Shown here in pieces: positions 8,871-31,293 of a stretch of DNA of 64,000 nt. The translations under genes and the position numbers were made by a program. The stretch's first letter is position 1. Each line of letters opens with the position of its first letter. The notes below the pieces were generated by a model. That model was not told the origin of the DNA. It made no database searches and saw only the letters and a program-made list of their open reading frames with translations. The stretch is from Escherichia coli. GTDB taxonomy: Bacteria > Pseudomonadota > Gammaproteobacteria > Enterobacterales > Enterobacteriaceae. The DNA lies in the NCBI RefSeq assembly GCF_048403405.1, contig NZ_CP183129.1. One strand, given 5' to 3'.

Positions 8871-8883
8871 TTTAACACAAAAA

Positions 8884-8912
8884 CCGCTAATGGTCAGATT
8901 AGCGGTTATTTT
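8884..8912. terminator. Bidirectional intrinsic terminator between convergent U and invertase genes
   Basis: Hairpin CCGCTAA-tggtcaga-TTAGCGG flanked by T-rich tracts on both strands. Confidence 0.5.
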
Positions 8913-9493
8913 GTTTCCTGACTCTTCTCTATTGTTCCGATTGATTCTCCTGCGGGGTGGTAACGATAAATCGTCGATATACCAATGCCGTAAATTATTG
9001 CCAGTTGTTTTCTGTCGTGCCCGTTTTTGATCAGCCTTGCTATTTGCTCATGCTGTTCTTTTGTCAGCTTCGGTCGACGTCCGCCTGTGCGCCCCCGTGC
9101 GCGTGCTGCCGCCAGTCCGGCCAGTGTACGTTCAACAATTAATTCACGTTCCATTTCAGCCAGGGCACCCATCACGTGGAAGAAAAAACGCCCCATTGGA
9201 GAAGATGTATCTATGCTGTCGGTCAGACTGCGAAAATTAATTCCTCGCTCCCGTAGTTCCCCGACGAGAGAAATCAGATGTTTCATGCTTCGCCCGAGGC
9301 GATCCAGTTTCCAGACAACCAGCGTGTCACCTTTTTGAAGGCGCTTTAAAGCGCGTTTTAATCCCGGTCGGTCTGTCTTTGTCCCGCTTAATTTATCTTC
9401 AAATATTTGTTCACATCCTGCACAAACAAGAGCGTTTCGTTGCAGGTCTGTATTCTGGTCATTTGTTGATACCCTTACATAGCCAATCAGCAC
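8906..9493 (-). CDS. Site-specific DNA invertase, Gin/Pin/Cin/Hin serine recombinase family
   Basis: (V)LIGYVRVSTNDQNTDLQRNALVCAGCEQIFEDKLSGTKTDRPGLKRALKRL... is near-identical in pattern to Mu Gin / e14 Pin; start trimmed to GTG at 9493. Confidence 0.9.
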   Translation of the reverse strand: MLIGYVRVSTNDQNTDLQRNALVCAGCEQIFEDKLSGTKTDRPGLKRALKRLQKGDTLVVWKLDRLGRSMKHLISLVGELRERGINFRSLTDSIDTSSPMGRFFFHVMGALAEMERELIVERTLAGLAAARARGRTGGRRPKLTKEQHEQIARLIKNGHDRKQLAIIYGIGISTIYRYHPAGESIGTIEKSQETK

Positions 9494-9547
9494 GCTGAAT
9501 CTCCCGTCCAAAAGCGCAAATCATGCCATGCAGGCCGGAAACGGCCA

Positions 9548-9580
9548 TTATCTAAAACCTCGGTTTACAGGAAACGGTAA
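9548..9580. other. gix-like inversion crossover site (right)
   Basis: TTATCTAAAACC-TC-GGTTTACAGGAA matches the gix/cix-type 26-bp site; an inverted copy lies at 12614-12646. Confidence 0.8.
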
Positions 9581-10581
9581 ACAAGGCTGGTAACGCCGTC
9601 CAAAAGACAGGCGATATCTTGTCCGGTGGGCTTACTTTTGAAAACGACTCAATCCTTGCCTGGATTCGGAATACTGACTGGGCAAAGATTGGTTTTAAAA
9701 ATGATGCCGACAGCGATACTGATTCATACATGTGGTTTGAAACAGGCGACAACGGCAATGAATATTTCAAATGGAGAAGCAAACAAAGCACCACAACAAA
9801 AGACCTGATGAATCTTAAATGGGATGCTTTGTCTGTTCTTGTTAAAGCCCTTTTCAGCAGTGAAGTAAAAATATCGACAGTCAATGCACTGAGGATATTT
9901 AATTCATCTTTTGGTGCTATTTTTCGCCGTTCTGAAGAATGCCTGCATATCATCCCGACACGAGAGAATGAGGGAGAAAATGGTGATATAGGGCCACTAC
10001 GCCCCTTTACGCTTAATCTCAGAACTGGTCGGATAAGCATGGGGCATGGTCTTGATGTTACAGGGGATATATTTGCAAACCGTTTTGCAATTAACAGTAG
10101 TACCGGCATGTGGATTCATATGCGTGACCAGAATGTTATTTTGGGACGCAATGCGGTATCCACCGATGGTGCACAGGCATTACTTCGTCAGGACCATGCT
10201 GATCGCAAATTTATGATTGGTGGGCTGGGAAATAAGCAATTTGGCATCTACATGATTAATAACTCAAGGACAGCTAATGGCACCGATGGTCAGGCGTACA
10301 TGGATAATAACGGGAACTGGCTTTGCGGTTCGCAAGTTATTCCCGGCAACTATGGCAATTTTGATTCCAGATATGTGAAAGATGTTCGACTTGGTTCACA
10401 GCAATATTATGGAGTGAACAACTGGCAAACATGGAATTTCCAGTGCCCGTCAGGTCATGTATTGTCTGGTATTAATGTTCAGGATACAGGGTCCAACTCT
10501 GCCGATAATATAGCGGGCGTTTATTACAGACCCGTTCAAAAGTATATAAATGGCACCTGGTATAATATAGCGAGCGTTTAA
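9559..10581 (+). CDS. Alternative tail-fiber C-terminal variable cassette (promoterless, silent in this orientation)
   Basis: Frame opens inside the crossover site and encodes LGLQETVN, the same peptide encoded at the other site within H; C-terminus [12 protein letters not shown] parallels the H C-terminus [12 protein letters not shown]. Confidence 0.75.
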
Positions 10582-10582
10582 T

Positions 10583-11110
10583 ATGATGCACTTAAAGAAC
10601 ATAAAAGCGGGTAATGCTAAAACACTGGAACAGTATGAGTTAACAAAGAAGCACGGAGTCATCTGGCTTTACTCTGAGGACGAAAAAAACTGGTATGAGG
10701 AAGTGAAAAACTTTCAGCCAGACACCATAAAGATTGTTTACGATGCAAATAATATTATTGTCGCCATCACTAAAGATGCCTCCACGCTTAACCCTGAAGG
10801 TTTTAGCGTCGTTGAGGTTCCAGATATTACAGCCAACCGCCGCGCTGATGATTCAGGAAAGTGGATGTTTAAGGATGGAGCTGTAGTTAAACGGATTTAT
10901 ACGGCAGACGAACAGCAACAACAGGCCGAATCACAAAAGGCCGCATTGCTTTCCGAAGCTGAATCAGTCATCCAGCCGCTGGAACGCGCTGTCAGGCTGA
11001 ATATGGCAACAGACGAGGAACGCACACGACTGGAAGCATGGGAACGCTACAGTGTTCTGGTCAGCCGTGTGGATACGGCAAATCCTGAATGGCCACAAAA
11101 GCCTGAATAA
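10583..11110 (+). CDS. Alternative tail fiber assembly protein (silent orientation)
   Basis: 175 aa; N-terminus [23 protein letters not shown] nearly identical to the active copy at 11139..11672, C-terminal part divergent. Confidence 0.8.
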
Positions 11111-11115
11111 AAATT

Positions 11116-11137
11116 AAGGCCCGCTATCGGGCCTTGT
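11116..11137. terminator. Bidirectional hairpin between the two convergent tail fiber assembly genes
   Basis: AAGGCCCG-ctat-CGGGCCTT perfect stem at the centre of the invertible segment. Confidence 0.5.
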
Positions 11138-11138
11138 C

Positions 11139-11672
11139 TCATTCAGGTTGTTCGGGAAATGTTACTGGCAGGCTGGAGGTGTCTGTAGATTCGACTTTCT
11201 GCGCATAGAGCATCCACTCGGTTAATTTTGGTTTATTCTCGTCGGAAATGATGCCCAGCCGTAGCTGTGAGTCCCATAGCTGGGTTTTATCCCTGACAAG
11301 TTGCAACAGGCTTTGCTTTTCATTTTCCGCCTGCTGCCTCTGCTCTTCCTCGGTATAAGTTCGCTTTACCACTACGCCATCTTTGAACATCCATTTACCC
11401 GAAATGTCAGCACGGCGATTTGCTGTAATATCAGGTAATTCAACGACGCTTGCGCCTTCCGGATTAATTGCTGAAACATCCTTTTCAATACAAATAATAA
11501 CGCCGTTATGGTCATAGACCATTTTTAAAGTGTCTGGCTGGAAATTCTTTTGTTCCTCATACCAGTTTTTTCCATCCTCTGAATAAAGCCATTTGATGTT
11601 AAATTGTTTCGTTAGCTGGTATTGCTCTTTTGTTTTAGGGTTGCCAGCAGTAATGTTTTTTAAGTGCATCAT
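11139..11672 (-). CDS. G: Tail fiber assembly protein (P2 G-like), active orientation
   Basis: 177 aa, immediately downstream of H. Confidence 0.85.
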
Positions 11673-11674
11673 CG

Positions 11675-13777
11675 TTAAATACTCCCCGCGTTATACCACG
11701 TCCCATTAATGCAATACTGAATTGGCCTTGCCTGAGTTGTATCAATTAATTCATCACGGTTTCCGTTAACTGAACCCGTAACGACATAACCTGACCTGTC
11801 AGACCAGCCGGGACCATTCCATGTCTGAACAGATGACAGACCGCCAAGGCGAATACCTGTAATAAACCTTGAGTTACATTCTGCCTGCGTGTATGCACCA
11901 ACATCTCCCGCTGAGGGTTTGCGGGTCGTGGTGTAAAACTCTGACCAGTCAGCTTCAAAGCCATAACCATCACGCGCTGAACGATAAAAAATGCCGCCGT
12001 TCCTGTAATTCACGCGGAACTGTACAGCAGGGCAACTCCCCGCATTCATATTGAAATGAAGAATTAACGTTGATGCGCCGGTGATTCTGGCGCAATAAAC
12101 TCCGCTGTTCCAGTTCCAGCCAACAGCTTTATCATTTCCGACAGTGCTTCCTGTTTGCCCTAAAGCAAATGCAGGTTGTTGATTTTTCGTGTTGTAGTCT
12201 CGTCGCCAGCCAGGAGCGTAAGCATCACCATGATTGATATAAGTGAATTGAGCGTTAGTAATTCCGCCACCGCTGGACGTGCTCGGCGTGGTAACGCGTA
12301 TGGTCATTGCGCCGCGAGTGCCAATAACTTCCACCACAGCACCTGCAAGACAAATATTTCCGCAACCTGTATCTGTAATGACCTTATTATTTGCATAAGC
12401 CCATGAGCCTTTGCACATCCAGTAAGGATGGTTAAATGCTCCCTGACTCTCCAGCCACGAAATAAATTGCGCGGTTGTCCAGACCTGACTATCGCCACCA
12501 ATATTCAGCCATGCGCTATATGCGCGGCAGGCACCAATATTTTTGGTGAAGGTATCTTTTCCTGGAATATCTGCGCCGTTCTGGTTTTTCTGTAATGCGC
12601 CAGAAGCCTGATTTACCGTTTCCTGTAAACCGAGGTATTCGATAACGGCAGCAACGGTCGATTTCGCAAGAATATCCCGCCCGACTTTTGTCAGGGTTGC
12701 CAGGCTGGCGACATCATTCCCCGTAAAATACGGAAACCTGTCTGCCGCAGTAGCAAGCCCGGCCAGCGCCGTCAGGGTGGCATCTTTCGGTTGCTTACCC
12801 GCAAGCGCTTTAGTCATGGTGGTCGCAAAATTCGGGTCGTTTCCCAGCGCCGCCGCTAACTCGTTCAACGTATTCAGTGCGTCAGGCGACGAGTCTACAA
12901 GTGCGGCAATCGCGGCCATCACATAAGCCGTGCTTGCGATCTGAGTATTATTAGTCCCTTTTGGCGCAGTTGGCGTTGTTGGCGTTCCGGTCAGTGCAGG
13001 ACTATTTAAGGGCGCTTTCTTGTTCGTTTCATCCATTACCGCCTTAACCGCTTTTGGCGTCGCAGCCAGCGTTTCAGATGTGCTGTTGGTGGCGCTACTG
13101 AGCTGAACTATCCCTTTTCGCGCAGTGGTAGCGTCCTGTGCGGTGTATTTGCCATTAGCCAGGTCATATGCCGCCTTAACAGCCTTTGGCGTTGCCGCAA
13201 GCGTTTCAGACGTGCTGTTAGTGGCGCTGCTAAGTTGAACAAAGCCTTTTGCGGTCAGCGAGGCGTCCGGGTGACGTCGTGAGTGTTCATGCTCTTTCAG
13301 TTTGTCATCCACGTAATCCACTGTGGCCATCACCATGGTGTTATCCACGGTAAGCGCCACGGTGGCAGTGCTGGATACGGTCAGAATGGTGCGAAATGTT
13401 TGTGCACGTCCTGACCCTTCGGCAACGGCTGGCTTGTAACTTTCGGCAGTATTGCCTACTGCGATTAAATCGCCGTGCTCATCAAACACACCAATTTCCC
13501 GGATCCAGAATCCGCCCGTTTCTGGAGGAATAACCAGCTCCGCAATAATGCGGTTCTGATGTGTTGCGTCCAGTATGACGCGATTAACAGTGTGTCGCCA
13601 CACCTCATGCACCAGACGGGTCTGCTTACTGTCTGGTGTGGGCAACGTGCCGCCACCGTCGCCCACGGCCATATGAGTCAGGCGGACAGGCTTACCATCT
13701 GGCGCGGCTGCCTGAGCTAATTTTTTTGCACCCGTATCGGTGATAACGGTTTTAAATTTTCGTGTTGTGGTACTCAT
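11675..13777 (-). CDS. H: Tail fiber protein H (constant N-terminal part 13777-12634, variable C-terminal part inside the invertible segment)
   Basis: 700 aa; conserved P2 H-like N-terminus, internal tandem repeat [22 protein letters not shown] x2; crossover site within the coding sequence. Confidence 0.9.
12614..12646. other. gix-like inversion crossover site (left), inside H
   Basis: TTACCGTTTCCTGTAAACCGAGGTATTCGATAA is the reverse complement of the 9548-9580 site, with 31 of 33 positions matching. Confidence 0.8.
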
Positions 13778-25634: not shown

Positions 25635-26132
25635 ATGAACCCAATAACACTACAAATCATCAGCAATGCTATTGTTCTGCTTGGCGTTTTGGTTGCCATT
25701 GGAACCATTATCTACAATGTGCGTACCGCAAAAAAAACTCAAACGGCCAACTTTCTTTTTGAGAGTCGGCAAGATATGCAATATATAGAGTCATTGCATA
25801 CCCTGAAACAAGTGCATCGTTCAGGCAAATCATTTCGTTCTTATGTTTTTCCTTGTGATGGTTGCATAATAACAGATGAAGAAATGGCCGAGCGTCGAAA
25901 ATTTCAATATATTTTAAATTTTTACGAGCGAGTTGCTGTAAGTATTCGTGAAGGTATTTATGATGAAAAAATGATAAAAAGAACATCTTACACAACAGTT
26001 GTAGAGACATATGATATTGCCGAGCCATTAATTAAAGCAATCAGAGAAAGCATTAATTCGGATACTACATATCAAGAATTCGAATGGTTAGTAAGAAGAT
26101 GGAAAGCTAATCCTTTACGGAAAAACAAATAA
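25635..26132 (+). CDS. Hypothetical protein, single N-terminal transmembrane helix plus ~130-aa soluble domain (unassigned family)
   Basis: 165-aa ORF in strongly AT-rich DNA, where long open frames are unlikely by chance; N-terminal hydrophobic helix ITLQIISNAIVLLGVLVAIGTIIY. Confidence 0.75.
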   Translation: MNPITLQIISNAIVLLGVLVAIGTIIYNVRTAKKTQTANFLFESRQDMQYIESLHTLKQVHRSGKSFRSYVFPCDGCIITDEEMAERRKFQYILNFYERVAVSIREGIYDEKMIKRTSYTTVVETYDIAEPLIKAIRESINSDTTYQEFEWLVRRWKANPLRKNK

Positions 26133-26171
26133 TGTTTTACCCTTTAATTTACAAGTAACACAGGGGGAAGT

Positions 26172-27014
26172 GTGACACAGAATCCGTTTTCATTTTATGA
26201 CTTTTTGGGCTATCTAATTCCAGGTGGGTTATTCCTGTTTATCCTTTTTTTGTTTTCTATTGAAATTAACCCTGTTTATATAGAAGGTATTCTTAACCAT
26301 ATCCTGAAATATAAAGAAATAATAAGTGTATTTATATATGTGGCATTAATCGTTCTATCATATATTTCAGGTCACTTCATATCTATTCTATCATCCTGTT
26401 TAATTGAAAAATACATGAACAGTAAACTTGGGTATCCTTCAATTTATCTGTTTTCTAAAAGAAGCTCCCTGAAAATAAAACGACATAATACTAAGTTCAG
26501 TATAGTTAATTTTATTCGTGGAGTTTTTTTATTTCCTGTATCAGCTTTTGATAAAGCAGAACATCATAAAACCACACTGCATTCTATACTTATTAAAGTC
26601 TTTTGGCCGCAAATACGAGATGGTTATATAAATGTTTTTTCTGTATCTACGCTATATCGACGTAAGGGCTTGAGGGGCAATCTTTTTCGCCTTGCTTATC
26701 ATTATGTGTATGAACATTCTAAAAATCATCAGGTGAAAATGCAAAACTATGTTGCTTTGTATGGTTTTTGTAGAAACATTACATTTGTTTTTCTCGCTTC
26801 AGTCTGGTTGCTTATGTTCCTGCTCCTTCTATCCTTTTTAATAGATATAAATATCAGACTGTTACCTTTTTGTTTTCTTCTCTTGTTTTGTATTGCTGTA
26901 TCCCGAGTATTTTATTATGGTTTTGTTAAGTATTATCGCCGCTATTCTCTTGAGGTTTTAATGGCATTTGCGGTACTTCAGCACGATAAAAAAACTTCGG
27001 CAATTTCATCATGA
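26172..27014 (+). CDS. Hypothetical polytopic inner-membrane protein (unassigned family)
   Basis: 280-aa ORF, GTG start after CAGGGGGAAG ribosome-binding site; several long hydrophobic segments at the N- and C-termini; AT-rich; 39 nt downstream of the preceding gene. Confidence 0.75.
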   Translation: MTQNPFSFYDFLGYLIPGGLFLFILFLFSIEINPVYIEGILNHILKYKEIISVFIYVALIVLSYISGHFISILSSCLIEKYMNSKLGYPSIYLFSKRSSLKIKRHNTKFSIVNFIRGVFLFPVSAFDKAEHHKTTLHSILIKVFWPQIRDGYINVFSVSTLYRRKGLRGNLFRLAYHYVYEHSKNHQVKMQNYVALYGFCRNITFVFLASVWLLMFLLLLSFLIDINIRLLPFCFLLLFCIAVSRVFYYGFVKYYRRYSLEVLMAFAVLQHDKKTSAISS

Positions 27015-27023
27015 TTTGAAACA

Positions 27024-27046
27024 TTGGCACCCTGTTAGCAAGGGTG
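27024..27046. terminator. Hairpin between the convergent cassette and parR-like gene
   Basis: GGCACCCT-gttagca-AGGGTGCC perfect stem. Confidence 0.4.
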
Positions 27047-27097
27047 CCAGAATGATGTGTTGGTCTGTATTTTATTAGTTCACATACAATTATCAGA

Positions 27098-27412
27098 TTA
27101 TTCTGGGAATAAGGTCTGAATATTCTTTTTTATTCTATAAAAATTGCATTCAACTCCGCTAGGCTGATTATCCTGGTATGTTTCCTTGATGCTAACGGTA
27201 TTGAAGGGGAGGTTGTCCTCTGGCCATTCGGCCATCCAGTAGGCAAATGCTGGGTTGCGCTTTATGAGCGCTAGCCCAGCCAGAAAGGCCGCGCGTTGCG
27301 CGCGGCTGCGTTCGGAGGCTGGTAGGCTATCGAGGTAATTGCACGCCTCCTGTTCACTCTTGACGGCGGCGGGCTTCAGATAGAAACTTATCCGTCTGGT
27401 TGGTGTCGTCAT
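27098..27412 (-). CDS. ParR/StbB-like partition adaptor
   Basis: Start trimmed to MTTPTRRISFYLKP...; YLDSLPASERSRAQRAAFLAGLAL resembles the R1 ParR motif as remembered; lies directly downstream of the ParM-like gene. Confidence 0.65.
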   Translation of the reverse strand: MTTPTRRISFYLKPAAVKSEQEACNYLDSLPASERSRAQRAAFLAGLALIKRNPAFAYWMAEWPEDNLPFNTVSIKETYQDNQPSGVECNFYRIKKNIQTLFPE

Positions 27413-27416
27413 TGGT

Positions 27417-28376
27417 TTACTCCTTGTCCATTGCGTACAGCCCATTAACCAGAGCAAACTGTGGCACCCCGTCCGCGATGAAAGTCGCATTAACTCCGCA
27501 GACTTCGCGGATAGCGGGTGCCACAATCTCCGCCCCTCCACCGACAACCATCACCCGCCCGTAACCCGAAAAAACCGCCAGCGCGCGGATCACGCGTTGT
27601 TTCAGTGTTTCTTCCTTTTCACGAATAACCGCCATCAGGCTGGCGTAATGCGCGTCATTGTGGATGTGCTGGCGCAGCCAGGCTTCATCATGGCGATGTT
27701 CGATAATGGTATTGGCGATGTGGTGACTGGTGCGCATACCGTTAGTGGCCATCACCGACAGTACGGCATCGGCCATCAGGGAAACGCCTACGTGTGGATC
27801 GCAAAACACCTGGCTGATACCTGCCAGTTGCCCTTGAACCTTTGCCACATCCAGCGTGGTTCCGCCTAAATCCACAATCAGCAGGGATTCAAACGGACTC
27901 ATGTCAGCCAGTGCTTTAAAGCCAGCCGGAATGGATTCAGGCATAACCCGCACGTTACGGATAGTGAATGCTTCGCCGTTCTGGTACTCCACCGAGCGCA
28001 TAACGTTCGCTTTTTTGCGGTTGATGTTGGCCATGTCCGGCTGTGCGTTTGTCTCGAAATACTCGCTCAGTGGCAGGGTGACAACCACATCCACCTCTTG
28101 TGGCGTGATGCCTGATTTGACCAGCGCGTGATGAATGGCGATTACATTCACATCGCTGTACTGGTATTGCGTGTCGGTCGTCTGGACAAAGCGATCGCTG
28201 ACCGGATCAAAACCATAGCGCACGCCATCAAGCATGTAGTTCGCGGGCTGCATGCCACCGAACGGCGCAGACCATTCCGACTTGAAGCTGTTCGGGCTGA
28301 TGGCGTTGCGGCGTTCGCCATTCTCAGTCCATGCCAGCTTGATGTTGGTGGAGCCGTCGTCGATACAAATTTTCAT
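27417..28376 (-). CDS. ParM/StbA-like actin-type partition ATPase
   Basis: 319 aa; IDDGSTNIKL, ISPNSF, QYSDVNV..HHAL, RKKAN, PESIPAG, LIVDLGGTTLD, GVSL, VVGGGAE and LVNG motifs as in plasmid R1 ParM (from memory). Confidence 0.8.
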   Translation of the reverse strand: MKICIDDGSTNIKLAWTENGERRNAISPNSFKSEWSAPFGGMQPANYMLDGVRYGFDPVSDRFVQTTDTQYQYSDVNVIAIHHALVKSGITPQEVDVVVTLPLSEYFETNAQPDMANINRKKANVMRSVEYQNGEAFTIRNVRVMPESIPAGFKALADMSPFESLLIVDLGGTTLDVAKVQGQLAGISQVFCDPHVGVSLMADAVLSVMATNGMRTSHHIANTIIEHRHDEAWLRQHIHNDAHYASLMAVIREKEETLKQRVIRALAVFSGYGRVMVVGGGAEIVAPAIREVCGVNATFIADGVPQFALVNGLYAMDKE

Positions 28377-28402
28377 GTCGATTTTCCTTATGTTGGTTAA
28401 TT

Positions 28403-28520
28403 AACCGTTTACGGGATTTTTAAATCCCGCTTTCGCCTGTTTTGTGCGCGCTTCATATATCGCGGCGCGTTTTTTGCTCATTTACGGGATTTGTGAATCC
28501 CGTTTCTGTCTGTTTTTTGT
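28403..28520. repeat. Two ~40-bp direct repeats, each with an internal palindrome (candidate parC-like centromere/operator)
   Basis: TTTACGGGATTT(T/G)T(A/G)AATCCCG...CTGTTTT occurs at 28403-28445 and 28477-28520, upstream of the ParM-like start and overlapping the 3' end of gene A. Confidence 0.45.
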
Positions 28521-31293
28521 TTCCACTGGTCAGGCCAGTCCTCAGCAGGTTTGCTTTGCGGCGGGCGCGTTCAGTGGTTTCTCTGATTCTCTGTGCGTGC
28601 TCTGCGTCACGAATGGCGCGCAGCATGTCAGAAAGCACGGTAACGGGTGTTTTCATGGTGTTCTGGACCTGCTGAAGTGTGGATGCCAGGCGTGCGGCGG
28701 CTTCGGGGTCTGATGCCCCGAGCTGTGCCAGATAGCTGGAGACCGGGTTATGGCGGATCTCCGTGCTGCTTACGCCGTGATTACGGCTCAGGCGCTGCCA
28801 GAGCTGCGTGATTCGGCTGTCCGGGCGGGCATCCGGTTTGCGTACAATTTCAAATCCCTGCGGTGCAATGATGCTGCCGTCAACGTACAGACTGCCGCCC
28901 CGTAACAGGTGCTGCATCTGTTGTTCACCGATATGCAGGCCGAGAGATTCAGCAGACTCCCGCCATTCTTTAGCGAGTAATTCGTGGTTATCAGGCAAAG
29001 GCCGCTGCTGTTTGCGGCTCTGTGTCCAGCTCTGCATTTCATCGCTGCTGTTTTTTGCCTGTTTGTCACGAAGCGAACGCATCAGCGCCCGGCGTTCGTG
29101 TCGTTTCAGTGAGCGCATCCATTCGTTCACTTCAACGCCGTTAGGGAGCTGCGGCCACGGTGCTGGCCGTTCTTCCGGCTGTTCTGTCCCGTTGTTGTCC
29201 GTTTCCTGTACACGGGGACAGTTATTGCCACGAGTCCAAGGGGCGGCAGGGCCGCCCTGAAGGTCAAAACCATTTTCGCGGGCGCTGTCTTCCGCTTCCG
29301 GTTTGCGTCTTACCAGCTTCCAGTTATCCGGATGCGTGCACACACGGGAGGATTCCCCGATGAGTGGTGACCAGATCCCGTAAATCTGTACGCTCTGTTC
29401 GCCGTAATCGTTCATCTCATCGGCGAGGTCGTAGGCGGTGCGAATCAGGTAGTCTTTGCGTGGAACAAGTACGCCGCCCTGTTTCTCTATGTAGGTGGCA
29501 AAACATCCGGCATCAGCGGCGGCAAGAACCGCATCCATTGCGTCATCCTTCAGCCGTTGCGGGCCTTCCGGGTTGCGTGCCATCTGGCTGGCAAGGCGGC
29601 GCAGTTCACGCCATACCTGGCGGGAGGGGATGCCAAAGAACTGGAACTGGCGGACCCGGTGAAGGCGCGCCCAGCCGATGGCGCGTTCCACGCTCTCGGC
29701 CATTGATTTTCCGGTTTCGTGGTCAACGCGTGGCTTGCCCGTTTTCGGGTCGATGCCATCCACGGCACGGCTGTCCAGGTTTTTCCCGATGTAGGTGGCG
29801 ATGTAGCTGGTCGGTGTGCCTTTTGAGCCGTCGACGTACTCCGCCTTAAAGCGTGGGGTAATATCATCACCCAGCTCGTGACGATCTTCCTGAATGGCAA
29901 TATCGCGGGTGTGGGACACAATAGTGTCGATTTCTTCCGGATGAGCAAAGACCATCATATGCCAGTGCACGGTGCCGTCATGGTGAGGCTCCACCGTGCG
30001 GATGCCATACCAGCGCAGGCCGTCGCGGTTCAGTTTCTTGCGGACCGCCGCAAAAAACGTGTTAACCAGGTAATCGCTGGAGTCGCGCATGGTGGCCCCG
30101 TTCCATTTGGGATTCGGATGACCGTTCTCTGTTGTGGCGTGGTATTTTGACGGGCAGGTGACAGTCAGAAACACCGCTCTGTCGCCACGGGCTTCGGCCA
30201 GAAGTTCCAGCCCCTTCATGGTGGCCATCATTTCTGCCTTACGGTGAACCGGGTTACTTACTCCCGCGTAATACACTGTCTCGAGATCAATCGTGAACCC
30301 ATCTTCGTTTTCCAGCATGAAACTTTTCAGGAAATCGCGTGTTTTCTCGCGCTGTGCGCGAAACTCGCTTAATGCGTCCTGGCTCAGATAGGGCGATGTT
30401 TTTCTGGAAACCAGACAGGCGGCGCGGAGTTGTTCTTCTCTCCACTCGCAACGTAACAGCCACAGTTTGCGTTTCCACCATTCCGCACAGGTCAGGCGAA
30501 GGATTGCGCCCGGCAGCAGCTCCGTGTCCGGTTCGTTCCTCCGGTCTTTATCTGTTGTCAGTGCGTCATAATGTGGAGGCATGATGTGCAGGTGTAACGC
30601 CATGCGGGCCAGCATCTGATACGCCTTCAGCGTTACATCCATGGTCAGTTCGCCATCGGTCGCGCCAAAGCCATCGCAGAGTTTTTCGAAGGTGCTGCTG
30701 AACATCGCCGCCGTCATGGTGGCCAGCGTCTGTATCTGGTGTTTGTTGAGCTGCGGCAGGTAAAGCAAATCGTCCAGGCGTTCGCGTCCGGCAAGGGAGC
30801 GATAACCAGGTGTCAGCCAGCGCCCGTCAGTGCGATCCAGACGTTCGAATATTTTGCGCAGGGTTCCGCGTGCATAGCGTTCCGCCTGCCAGGTCTTTTT
30901 GCCTTTCTGACGATCGGCTTCCTGCTTCTTGCGCAGGAAAGAGAGGTGGCGGCTCAGAGGTTCTCGCAGATAACCGGGAAGCGCCTTCAGTGTGGCAAAG
31001 GCACGGGCTACCGGGTCTTGTTCTGTTGCCCGGCGCTTACTGATGATGCTCTGTGCCAGCTTTTCACGCTGTCCGGCTTCCTCAAGGGATGCCATGAGTT
31101 TTTTACCCATGGCGGATTGTGCGAAAAAGGCTTCTTCCTTCGCTTCCTGTTCTTCCTGTGCCCTTTTGTCCGCCTCAAGGTAGTAACGGATGGCGCGTTG
31201 CAGGTCGGTTTCAGTTTCCTGCCTGCGCTCCGTAAATCTGGCCGGATCAATAGCTGGTCGTGGTTCATTCCAGCTCCATGCAAACGCACTCAT
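28453..31293 (-). CDS. A: Replication initiation protein A (rolling-circle HUH endonuclease)
   Basis: Long ORF with HWHMMVF HUH-like motif and P2 gpA-like region; start trimmed to MSAFAWS, abutting the upstream gene stop. Confidence 0.85.
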   Translation of the reverse strand: MSAFAWSWNEPRPAIDPARFTERRQETETDLQRAIRYYLEADKRAQEEQEAKEEAFFAQSAMGKKLMASLEEAGQREKLAQSIISKRRATEQDPVARAFATLKALPGYLREPLSRHLSFLRKKQEADRQKGKKTWQAERYARGTLRKIFERLDRTDGRWLTPGYRSLAGRERLDDLLYLPQLNKHQIQTLATMTAAMFSSTFEKLCDGFGATDGELTMDVTLKAYQMLARMALHLHIMPPHYDALTTDKDRRNEPDTELLPGAILRLTCAEWWKRKLWLLRCEWREEQLRAACLVSRKTSPYLSQDALSEFRAQREKTRDFLKSFMLENEDGFTIDLETVYYAGVSNPVHRKAEMMATMKGLELLAEARGDRAVFLTVTCPSKYHATTENGHPNPKWNGATMRDSSDYLVNTFFAAVRKKLNRDGLRWYGIRTVEPHHDGTVHWHMMVFAHPEEIDTIVSHTRDIAIQEDRHELGDDITPRFKAEYVDGSKGTPTSYIATYIGKNLDSRAVDGIDPKTGKPRVDHETGKSMAESVERAIGWARLHRVRQFQFFGIPSRQVWRELRRLASQMARNPEGPQRLKDDAMDAVLAAADAGCFATYIEKQGGVLVPRKDYLIRTAYDLADEMNDYGEQSVQIYGIWSPLIGESSRVCTHPDNWKLVRRKPEAEDSARENGFDLQGGPAAPWTRGNNCPRVQETDNNGTEQPEERPAPWPQLPNGVEVNEWMRSLKRHERRALMRSLRDKQAKNSSDEMQSWTQSRKQQRPLPDNHELLAKEWRESAESLGLHIGEQQMQHLLRGGSLYVDGSIIAPQGFEIVRKPDARPDSRITQLWQRLSRNHGVSSTEIRHNPVSSYLAQLGASDPEAAARLASTLQQVQNTMKTPVTVLSDMLRAIRDAEHAQRIRETTERARRKANLLRTGLTSGNKKQTETGFTNPVNEQKTRRDI

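Follow-up and report, generated by a model that had tools for sequence, protein, structure and literature searches.

Why would a phage that integrates into the chromosome keep a plasmid segregation machine? This question is raised by a stretch of 64,000 nucleotides (nt) of Escherichia coli DNA (contig NZ_CP183129.1, assembly GCF_048403405.1; the whole stretch is called the window below), in which a P2-family prophage carries a parM-parR gene pair directly downstream of its replication gene A and two palindromic repeats upstream of parM. An earlier note on this DNA, made from the sequence alone, had recognized there an actin-type partition module with a possible centromere. The present analysis favors, with a probability of about 0.6, a complete type II ParM/ParR/centromere cassette, which would segregate free circular genomes of P88-like phages (Xuanwuvirus) and would be read together with A from the early operon. 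The module and the gene preceding it have the following components:

27417..28376, minus strand: parM, actin-type segregation ATPase, 319 amino acids (aa)
27098..27412, minus strand: parR (stbB-like), predicted ribbon-helix-helix centromere-binding adaptor, 104 aa, ATG at 27412
28453..31293, minus strand: gene A, rolling-circle replication endonuclease, 946 aa as in the RefSeq annotation
28408..28446, no strand assigned: proximal repeat unit of 39 nt, candidate centromere/operator half, palindrome at 28412-28429
28481..28519, no strand assigned: distal repeat unit of 39 nt, candidate centromere half, palindrome at 28485-28502

A and parM are located on the same strand with a spacer of 76 nt between the A stop codon (28453-28455) and the parM ATG, while parR begins 4 nt past the parM stop. 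The ParM/StbA-like ATPase proposed at 27417..28376 was confirmed by the profile search, which matched the Pfam models StbA_N (E 2e-81) and ParM C-terminal domain (E 1.6e-68); the NCBIfam ParM model PRK13917 gave a weak match (E 3.8e-4), the Pfam models being decisive. The protein aligned end to end (residues 2-316 of 319) with the R1 ParM structure (PDB 1MWK, E 3e-92), its nucleotide-binding and hydrolysis motifs DDGSTNIK, MPESIPAG, DLGGTTLD and GGGAE being identical to those of R1 ParM in the alignments, and it also matched PHROG 691 'partition protein' (2.4e-89) and was 46% identical to the ParM of an IncFII plasmid. Judged by these matches, the 319-aa protein is a member of the ParM/StbA family and of no other actin/Hsp70-fold family. 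The gene is under strong purifying selection, with a ratio of nonsynonymous to synonymous substitution rates (dN/dS) of 0.05-0.15, and is intact in 83 of the 85 related copies (80 loci from IMG/VR, the rest from records of phages, plasmids, E. coli and metagenomes) whose parM-upstream regions were also used for the repeat survey.

The adaptor claimed at 27098..27412 was recovered by the same approach, with a match to Pfam Plasmid_stab_B (StbB/ParR family, E 9.4e-29) and to PHROG 2515 'partition protein' (1.5e-54), while the match to the ribbon-helix-helix ParR/StbB of pB171 (PDB 2JD3) was weaker (E 0.012 with the single sequence and 0.005 with the profile). The earlier note had itself named a finding that would speak against it, namely an ATPase of a non-ParM actin/Hsp70-fold family without a ParR partner; instead, both families were matched and parR adjoins parM. 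The identity with the IncFII StbB is 35%, the C-terminal KKN..L motif being aligned, and the (K)NIxxxFPE tail of the phage protein corresponds to KKNAMKLIN of StbB. At least seven ParR alleles were distinguished, which have in common residues 1-~65 and the tail NIxxxFPE, while the linker between them is hypervariable and unrelated between alleles. The N-terminal 18 residues are essentially invariant, and the predicted DNA-reading strand RRISFYLKP is invariant across the alleles. The survival of the tail through every linker exchange argues that it is needed. The C-terminal tail of R1 ParR holds ParM, and by analogy NIxxxFPE would do the same in the phage protein. The allele in the window is 57% identical to the ParR of P88. 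At the nucleotide level the gene is a mosaic, 93-100% identical to the P88 allele over the first 60 nt and ~50% identical from codon ~20 onward; its 3' third has a G+C content of 0.37, tracking that of the neighboring cargo genes, and each type of cargo is linked to a single ParR allele.

The two ~40-bp palindromic direct repeats pointed out in the earlier note, one of which overlaps the 3' end of A, proved to be 39-nt units in a position equivalent to that of parC. They are 82% identical and lie 73 bp apart start to start, and both contain the perfect 7-4-7 palindrome CGGGATT-N4-AATCCCG, which has no other exact match in the 64-kb window; with up to two mismatches allowed, the pattern was found three times against 0.24 matches expected by chance. 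The proximal unit is placed within the spacer between A and parM, with its center ~44 nt upstream of the parM ATG, and the distal one within the last ~22 codons of gene A, with its center ~117 nt upstream of the same codon. Most of the 85 copies have both palindromes, with start positions ~55 and ~128 nt before the parM ATG. Variable columns made up 43-52% of the repeat units (43% in the distal one) compared to 91% of the A coding sequence just upstream, and the palindrome arms varied less than the loops (in the proximal unit, mean minor-allele frequency 0.020 versus 0.20). The changes in the arms were single and one-sided, and no compensatory change was seen in the 85 copies, a pattern expected of a protein-binding site more than of an RNA stem. 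A diverged relative from Hafnia (parM dS 0.62 versus the window) keeps both units with the identical spacing of 73 bp, and its A stop codon falls inside the loop of the distal palindrome, which means that the element is conserved independently of the A reading frame. The conservation of the repeats thus exceeds chance, and, judged by their position and pattern of variation, the two units probably form the centromere of the module.

Several other roles were considered for the repeats. Their retention merely as a coding sequence for the A C-terminus was ruled out by the Hafnia copy, in which the unit persists although A ends within the distal palindrome. The palindromes fold into stable hairpins (-10 to -14 kcal/mol, z -2 to -3), but a function as intrinsic terminators of the A transcript was excluded since no U-tract follows them on the minus strand; on the plus strand, a T-rich tract is present after each hairpin and one of them scores as terminator-like. 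A comparison with the regions upstream of plasmid parM genes for the same palindromes was uninformative, the closest plasmid ParR proteins being only 34-41% identical and their parC consisting of direct iterons. The repeats were also rejected as a replication origin, which is probably located elsewhere in A. This site and two further features downstream of parR are as follows:

29218..29257, minus strand: probable origin (A nick site) GGGCGGCCCTGCCGCCCCTTGGACTCGTGGCAATAACTGT, by homology to phage 186 and Wphi
27024..27050, no strand assigned: G+C-rich hairpin where parR and the cargo genes converge, at which the A-parM-parR transcript probably ends
25635-27014, plus strand: hotspot cargo gene pair, DUF4760 protein and predicted membrane protein

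The replication origin is located inside gene A in phages P2 and 186. The A protein, annotated as 'replication endonuclease' in NZ_CP019051, is 35% identical to that of phage 186, whose record annotates a rep_origin within A; the 186 origin and its Wphi counterpart align with 29218-29257 of the window. The site, common to 186 and Wphi, consists of a GGGCGG/CCGCCC hairpin followed by ...CAATAACTGT, and its distance of ~700 bp from the repeats indicates that the latter are not the nick site. An inverted repeat CTGT-N8-ACAG directly after the origin-like site (29206-29257) is the sole match to the LexA-box skeleton in the window, but it is probably a coincidence, with a chance expectation of 0.8 per window. 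The last ~145 aa of A (28453-28890) are lineage-specific, without counterpart in the A proteins of Fels-2, Klebsiella phages, P2, Wphi and 186, and the E. coli and Hafnia copies are not alike in where the A stop falls with respect to the distal palindrome.

A consensus scan of the minus strand within 28377-28560 found no sigma-70-like promoter, although a weak or activator-dependent one is possible, and there was no terminator-like site on this strand in the A-parM spacer or the last A codons (same interval); the two minus-strand terminator-like sites reported by the scan are both inside parM. Likewise, no ParR-autoregulated promoter appeared inside the parC-like site in the consensus scan. 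Past parR, the hairpin at 27024..27050 formed a 9-bp stem (GGCACCCUU/AGGGUGCC) in the RNA fold. The lack of promoter and terminator signals between A and parM, together with this hairpin, suggests that parM and parR are probably the distal end of an early operon with A, silent under the repressor.

The earlier note had placed the gene pair in the tin/old hotspot of P2-type phages, which was correct only as far as the pair borders it. In all 78 assessable IMG/VR loci parM was directly downstream of this type of gene A, and its G+C content (0.55) is close to that of A (0.57), in contrast to 0.33 in the two genes past parR (25635-27014), where at least 18 different sequences were found at the same position across 69 related loci. 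Neither the variable presence nor the atypical composition of hotspot cargo was therefore observed for parM-parR: the pair is a core part of the replication module, bordering but outside the hotspot cargo, while the variable hotspot, as traced by sequence, starts past parR with its boundary reaching into parR. In the window, the cargo encodes a DUF4760 protein of 165 aa (PHROG 2284) and a predicted membrane protein of 280 aa (PHROG 12528), the latter with a weak PADLOC match to Csx27 (E 1.6e-5). Such swapping of cargo past parR is typical of a P2-type defense hotspot. For ParM and ParR themselves PADLOC returned no match at E <= 1, which leaves the exclusion or defense function considered in the earlier note unsupported.

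The element was described in that note as an integrated P2-family prophage, and this holds: the phage integrase adjoins pdxB, and the window is ~98% identical to the flk-pdxB region of E. coli CRE1540 (100% within the module itself), from which it follows that the prophage, a P88-like member of the P2 family, is integrated between flk and pdxB. The integrase and cox genes are retained; the attP core of P88 was absent from the window. According to the alignment with annotated CRE1540, the ogr-proximal end of the prophage (~1-1980) carries a gene of the TagO-like type VI secretion-associated type, a zinc-ribbon gene (789-1121) and a Hok/Gef family toxin gene (~1384-1524), and these genes look like moron cargo at the opposite end of the prophage. 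The only part of the prophage without alignment to that of CRE1540 is the tail-fiber/acetyltransferase region at 8877-13040, and this host-range module appears to have been swapped relative to the CRE1540 prophage.

Existing annotations already cover the module in phage P88 and in 13 further phage records (Xuanwuvirus, Peduoviridae), and it was matched in 1,303 of 5,426 complete E. coli genomes (~24%), including O157:H7 and ST131 strains, at 1441-1476 chromosomal places versus two on plasmids. Up to three copies were found per E. coli genome; several prophages sharing one candidate centromere are thus present side by side in a single chromosome, as would suit a module silent in lysogeny. Among 50,697 phage records, ParM of this family occurred in only 16, namely the 14 of Xuanwuvirus and two of phage D6, compared to 380 records with homologues of gene A; P2, Wphi, 186, Fels-2 and others are thus devoid of the module, in agreement with the earlier statement that it does not belong to canonical P2. 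No plasmid ParM at 60-95% identity was found in PLSDB, the closest true plasmid copies being at ~51%, and the closest plasmid ParR proteins were at 34-41% identity. This gap indicates, at the level of protein comparison, that the phage module is a lineage of its own within the R1-type family.

The search for extrachromosomal copies, proposed in the earlier note in view of a possible episomal form, gave an overwhelming majority of chromosomal places and a single phage-sized circular record. The latter, PLSDB entry NZ_CP148288.1, is a circle of 34,461 bp deposited as an E. coli plasmid and represents the entire genome of a P88-like phage, in which integrase, cox, A, parM and parR are all present; a second strain from the same study carries the identical module in its chromosome. 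The assembly of the strain with the circle was not among the best matches in the E. coli collection when an integrated copy was looked for. This circle may be either a stable episome or induced phage DNA.

Compared to the ParMRC (stbAB/parC) systems of R1/R100 and other IncF plasmids, the phage module has the same order of cis site, parM and parR; its ParM can be aligned over the full length (46% identity) and retains every nucleotide-binding motif, its ParR shares the Pfam family of the plasmid adaptors, having an N-terminal ribbon-helix-helix and an aligned C-terminal KKN..L tail, and its repeats are likewise upstream of parM. The differences are the location on an integrating P2-family phage instead of a plasmid, the low identity of ParR to the IncF ParR proteins (34-35%), the cis site made of two 39-nt units with 7-4-7 palindromes instead of direct iteron arrays, and the lack of a consensus promoter in this site. 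Within its own group the module is much less divergent. P88 and the other Xuanwuvirus phages (vB_EcoM-569R5, 520873, P884B11 and Citrobacter phiSM) show 95.7-98.5% DNA identity over the matched part and 94-99% identity of ParM, with the A-parM-parR-cargo-portal synteny and the repeats in common, and the names given to the genes in their records are 'plasmid segregation protein ParM' and 'partition protein'; the window differs from P88 in the parR allele, the cargo and the integration site (flk|pdxB).

Two systems from other normally integrated elements provide a functional parallel. In SXT/R391, srpMRC comprises a ParM-like protein, a ParR-like protein and a centromere, is expressed only on activation and stabilizes the replicating excised circle; two fragments of ~40 bp make up its centromere srpC, and SrpR binds the paired repeats within each of them (Carraro et al. 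2015, PMC4489591). The two ~40-bp units with inverted repeats upstream of the phage parM match this arrangement. However, SrpM and SrpR are distant from R1 ParM and ParR while the phage proteins are close to them, the carrier is an integrative and conjugative element with relaxase-driven replication rather than a phage with an A nickase, and the function has been demonstrated for srpMRC, whereas the phage module is known here from its sequence. In the prophage CGP3 of Corynebacterium glutamicum, the AlpAC proteins, an actin-like filament former and a DNA-binding adaptor which binds repeats (alpS) upstream of the operon, are induced early after excision, move the excised prophage DNA and are needed for efficient replication of the circle (Donovan et al. 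2015, PMC4446434). This is again an integrated prophage with an actin-like protein, a DNA-binding adaptor and upstream repeats, but the actin-like family, gene order, host and type of phage are all different from those of the P88-like module. In contrast, two other phages with partition genes are extrachromosomal in lysogeny, while the element studied here is integrated by means of a tyrosine integrase: D6, a P1-like phage-plasmid with a StbA-type ParM 47% identical to that of the window, and the P2-like Burkholderia phage KS14, whose prophage persists as a plasmid with RepB and ParA (PMC3091744) and which has a RepB replicon and a serine recombinase in place of the P2-type integrase.

If the cassette acts in segregation, parM and parR would be read through from A as the tail of the early (lytic or establishment) operon and would be off in the repressed lysogen. 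After infection or excision, A-driven rolling-circle replication would yield circular genomes; in P2, monomeric circles are both the product of replication and the substrate of packaging. Dimers of ParR would bind the two units, in which the half-sites are 11 bp apart and whose spacing of 73 bp, corresponding to ~7 helical turns, would place them on the same side of the helix. The conserved C-terminal tail of ParR would then capture the ends of ParM filaments, and filament growth would push apart or position the free circular phage genomes. The phage would probably benefit in that its circles reach all parts of the cell, and both daughter cells, ahead of integration, packaging or lysis. The module would in this way stabilize a transient plasmid-like state, comparable to what is done by srpMRC (PMC4489591) and AlpAC (PMC4446434).

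Several observations weigh against this reading of the locus. The cis site has two palindromic units, in contrast to the direct A/C- or T-rich iterons of the R1-type and other IncF parC regions compared, and one palindrome arm is degenerate in many copies. One IMG/VR variant (L028) has a single hybrid repeat unit upstream of parM; this unit corresponds to a clean deletion of 73 bp between the direct repeats, fusing the A tail to the proximal unit. A prophage without parM and parR in E. coli CUVET19-1704 (NZ_CP115358.1) keeps the distal unit inside gene A. In this rare relative a frameshifted ead/Ea22-like gene starts 21 nt past the A stop. The retention is expected as the unit lies within the A open reading frame, yet it may also reflect a role related to A. 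Furthermore, both the RRISFYLKP strand of ParR and the palindrome arms are invariant, so that there is no covariation signal between the ParR alleles and the repeats, and the co-transcription of A with parM-parR is inferred only from the absence of consensus signals.

Three other explanations, not all mutually exclusive, were weighed against segregation of free circles. It is possible, though doubtful, that the repeats are not a centromere but an A-related or RNA element (a processing or attenuation hairpin), the site of another regulator or antisense terminators, with ParR binding elsewhere or weakly. The distal unit kept in the parMR-less prophage, the stable hairpins with plus-strand T-rich tracts, one of them terminator-like, and the restriction to two units, where R1-type parC has iteron arrays, would all be compatible with this. 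However, the two units share one arm sequence, which is preserved in a diverged genus despite variable loops, the changes in the arms are never compensatory, the hairpins lack a following U-tract on the transcribed strand, the nick site is ~700 bp away, the location upstream of parM and the two ~40-bp inverted-repeat units match srpC, and the retention in the parMR-less prophage is expected from the location of the unit in A. A facultative phage-plasmid, with A as the replicase and ParMRC as the partition system of a long-term autonomous plasmid state and with integration as one of two lysogenic states, is unlikely. Such a life style has a precedent in the P2-like plasmid prophage KS14 (PMC3091744), episomal and integrated states were suggested for P88 by Pfeifer et al. 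2021 (PMC7969092), and a partition cassette and a replication initiator are indeed joined on one element, of which a whole circular genome (NZ_CP148288.1; 34,461 bp) was deposited as a plasmid. Yet a phage-sized circular contig could also arise by spontaneous induction, and the identical module is integrated in another strain of the same study. Extrachromosomal lysogeny, the mark of a phage-plasmid, was not what was observed: the copy in the window is integrated, the places in complete E. coli genomes are overwhelmingly chromosomal (1441-1476 versus two on plasmids), the element retains its integrase and cox, its A protein is a nickase of the rolling-circle type and no plasmid-type copy control was found here, while both P88 (PMC5285337) and phiSM (PMC6456863) were described as integrated, inducible prophages.

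Very improbable is a function in lysogenic conversion or conflict, where a module expressed from the prophage would exclude or destabilize incoming plasmids or phages, or ParM would be co-opted for a role other than segregation. The module adjoins a P2-type defense hotspot, and parM was listed as 'fitness' cargo in the phiSM paper (PMC6456863), but PADLOC gave no match, the backbone-like composition and fixed linkage to A are unlike the swapping cargo next door, a recognizable promoter of its own is missing, and cross-reaction with IncF plasmids is unlikely given a ParR 34-35% identical to theirs and repeats unlike their parC.

The annotation of these genes as ParM and partition protein is already public, in PGAP, the RefSeq phages including P88, PHROGs and more than 1,300 complete E. 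coli genomes, and the idea of a dual episomal/integrated state of P88 has also been published (Pfeifer et al. 2021, PMC7969092). The phiSM paper treats the gene as fitness cargo only (PMC6456863), the P88 paper does not discuss the module (PMC5285337), and no functional study of it was found in the open-access PMC and bioRxiv literature. New in the present work are the description of how the candidate centromere is built and conserved, its location apart from the origin, the core status of the module beside the hotspot and the mosaicism of parR.

A 'plasmid segregation protein ParM' call in an E. coli chromosome usually marks this prophage lineage and not plasmid DNA, and chromosomal ParM calls can mislead phage-plasmid or plasmid classifiers. 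As a very common and strongly conserved module, the cassette is a tractable object for testing why a plasmid segregation machine is maintained by a phage that integrates, the candidate answers being stabilization of the excised or pre-integration circle, organization of replication, or the permission of an episomal carrier state. A more far-reaching and tentative possibility is that P88-like phages use ParMRC for a heritable, replicating episomal carrier state beside integration, or for the spatial organization of rolling-circle replication and packaging. If true, these phages would represent a very common bridge between integrating prophages and phage-plasmids, and their repeats would be a new, palindromic type of centromere read by a ParR of the R1 family.

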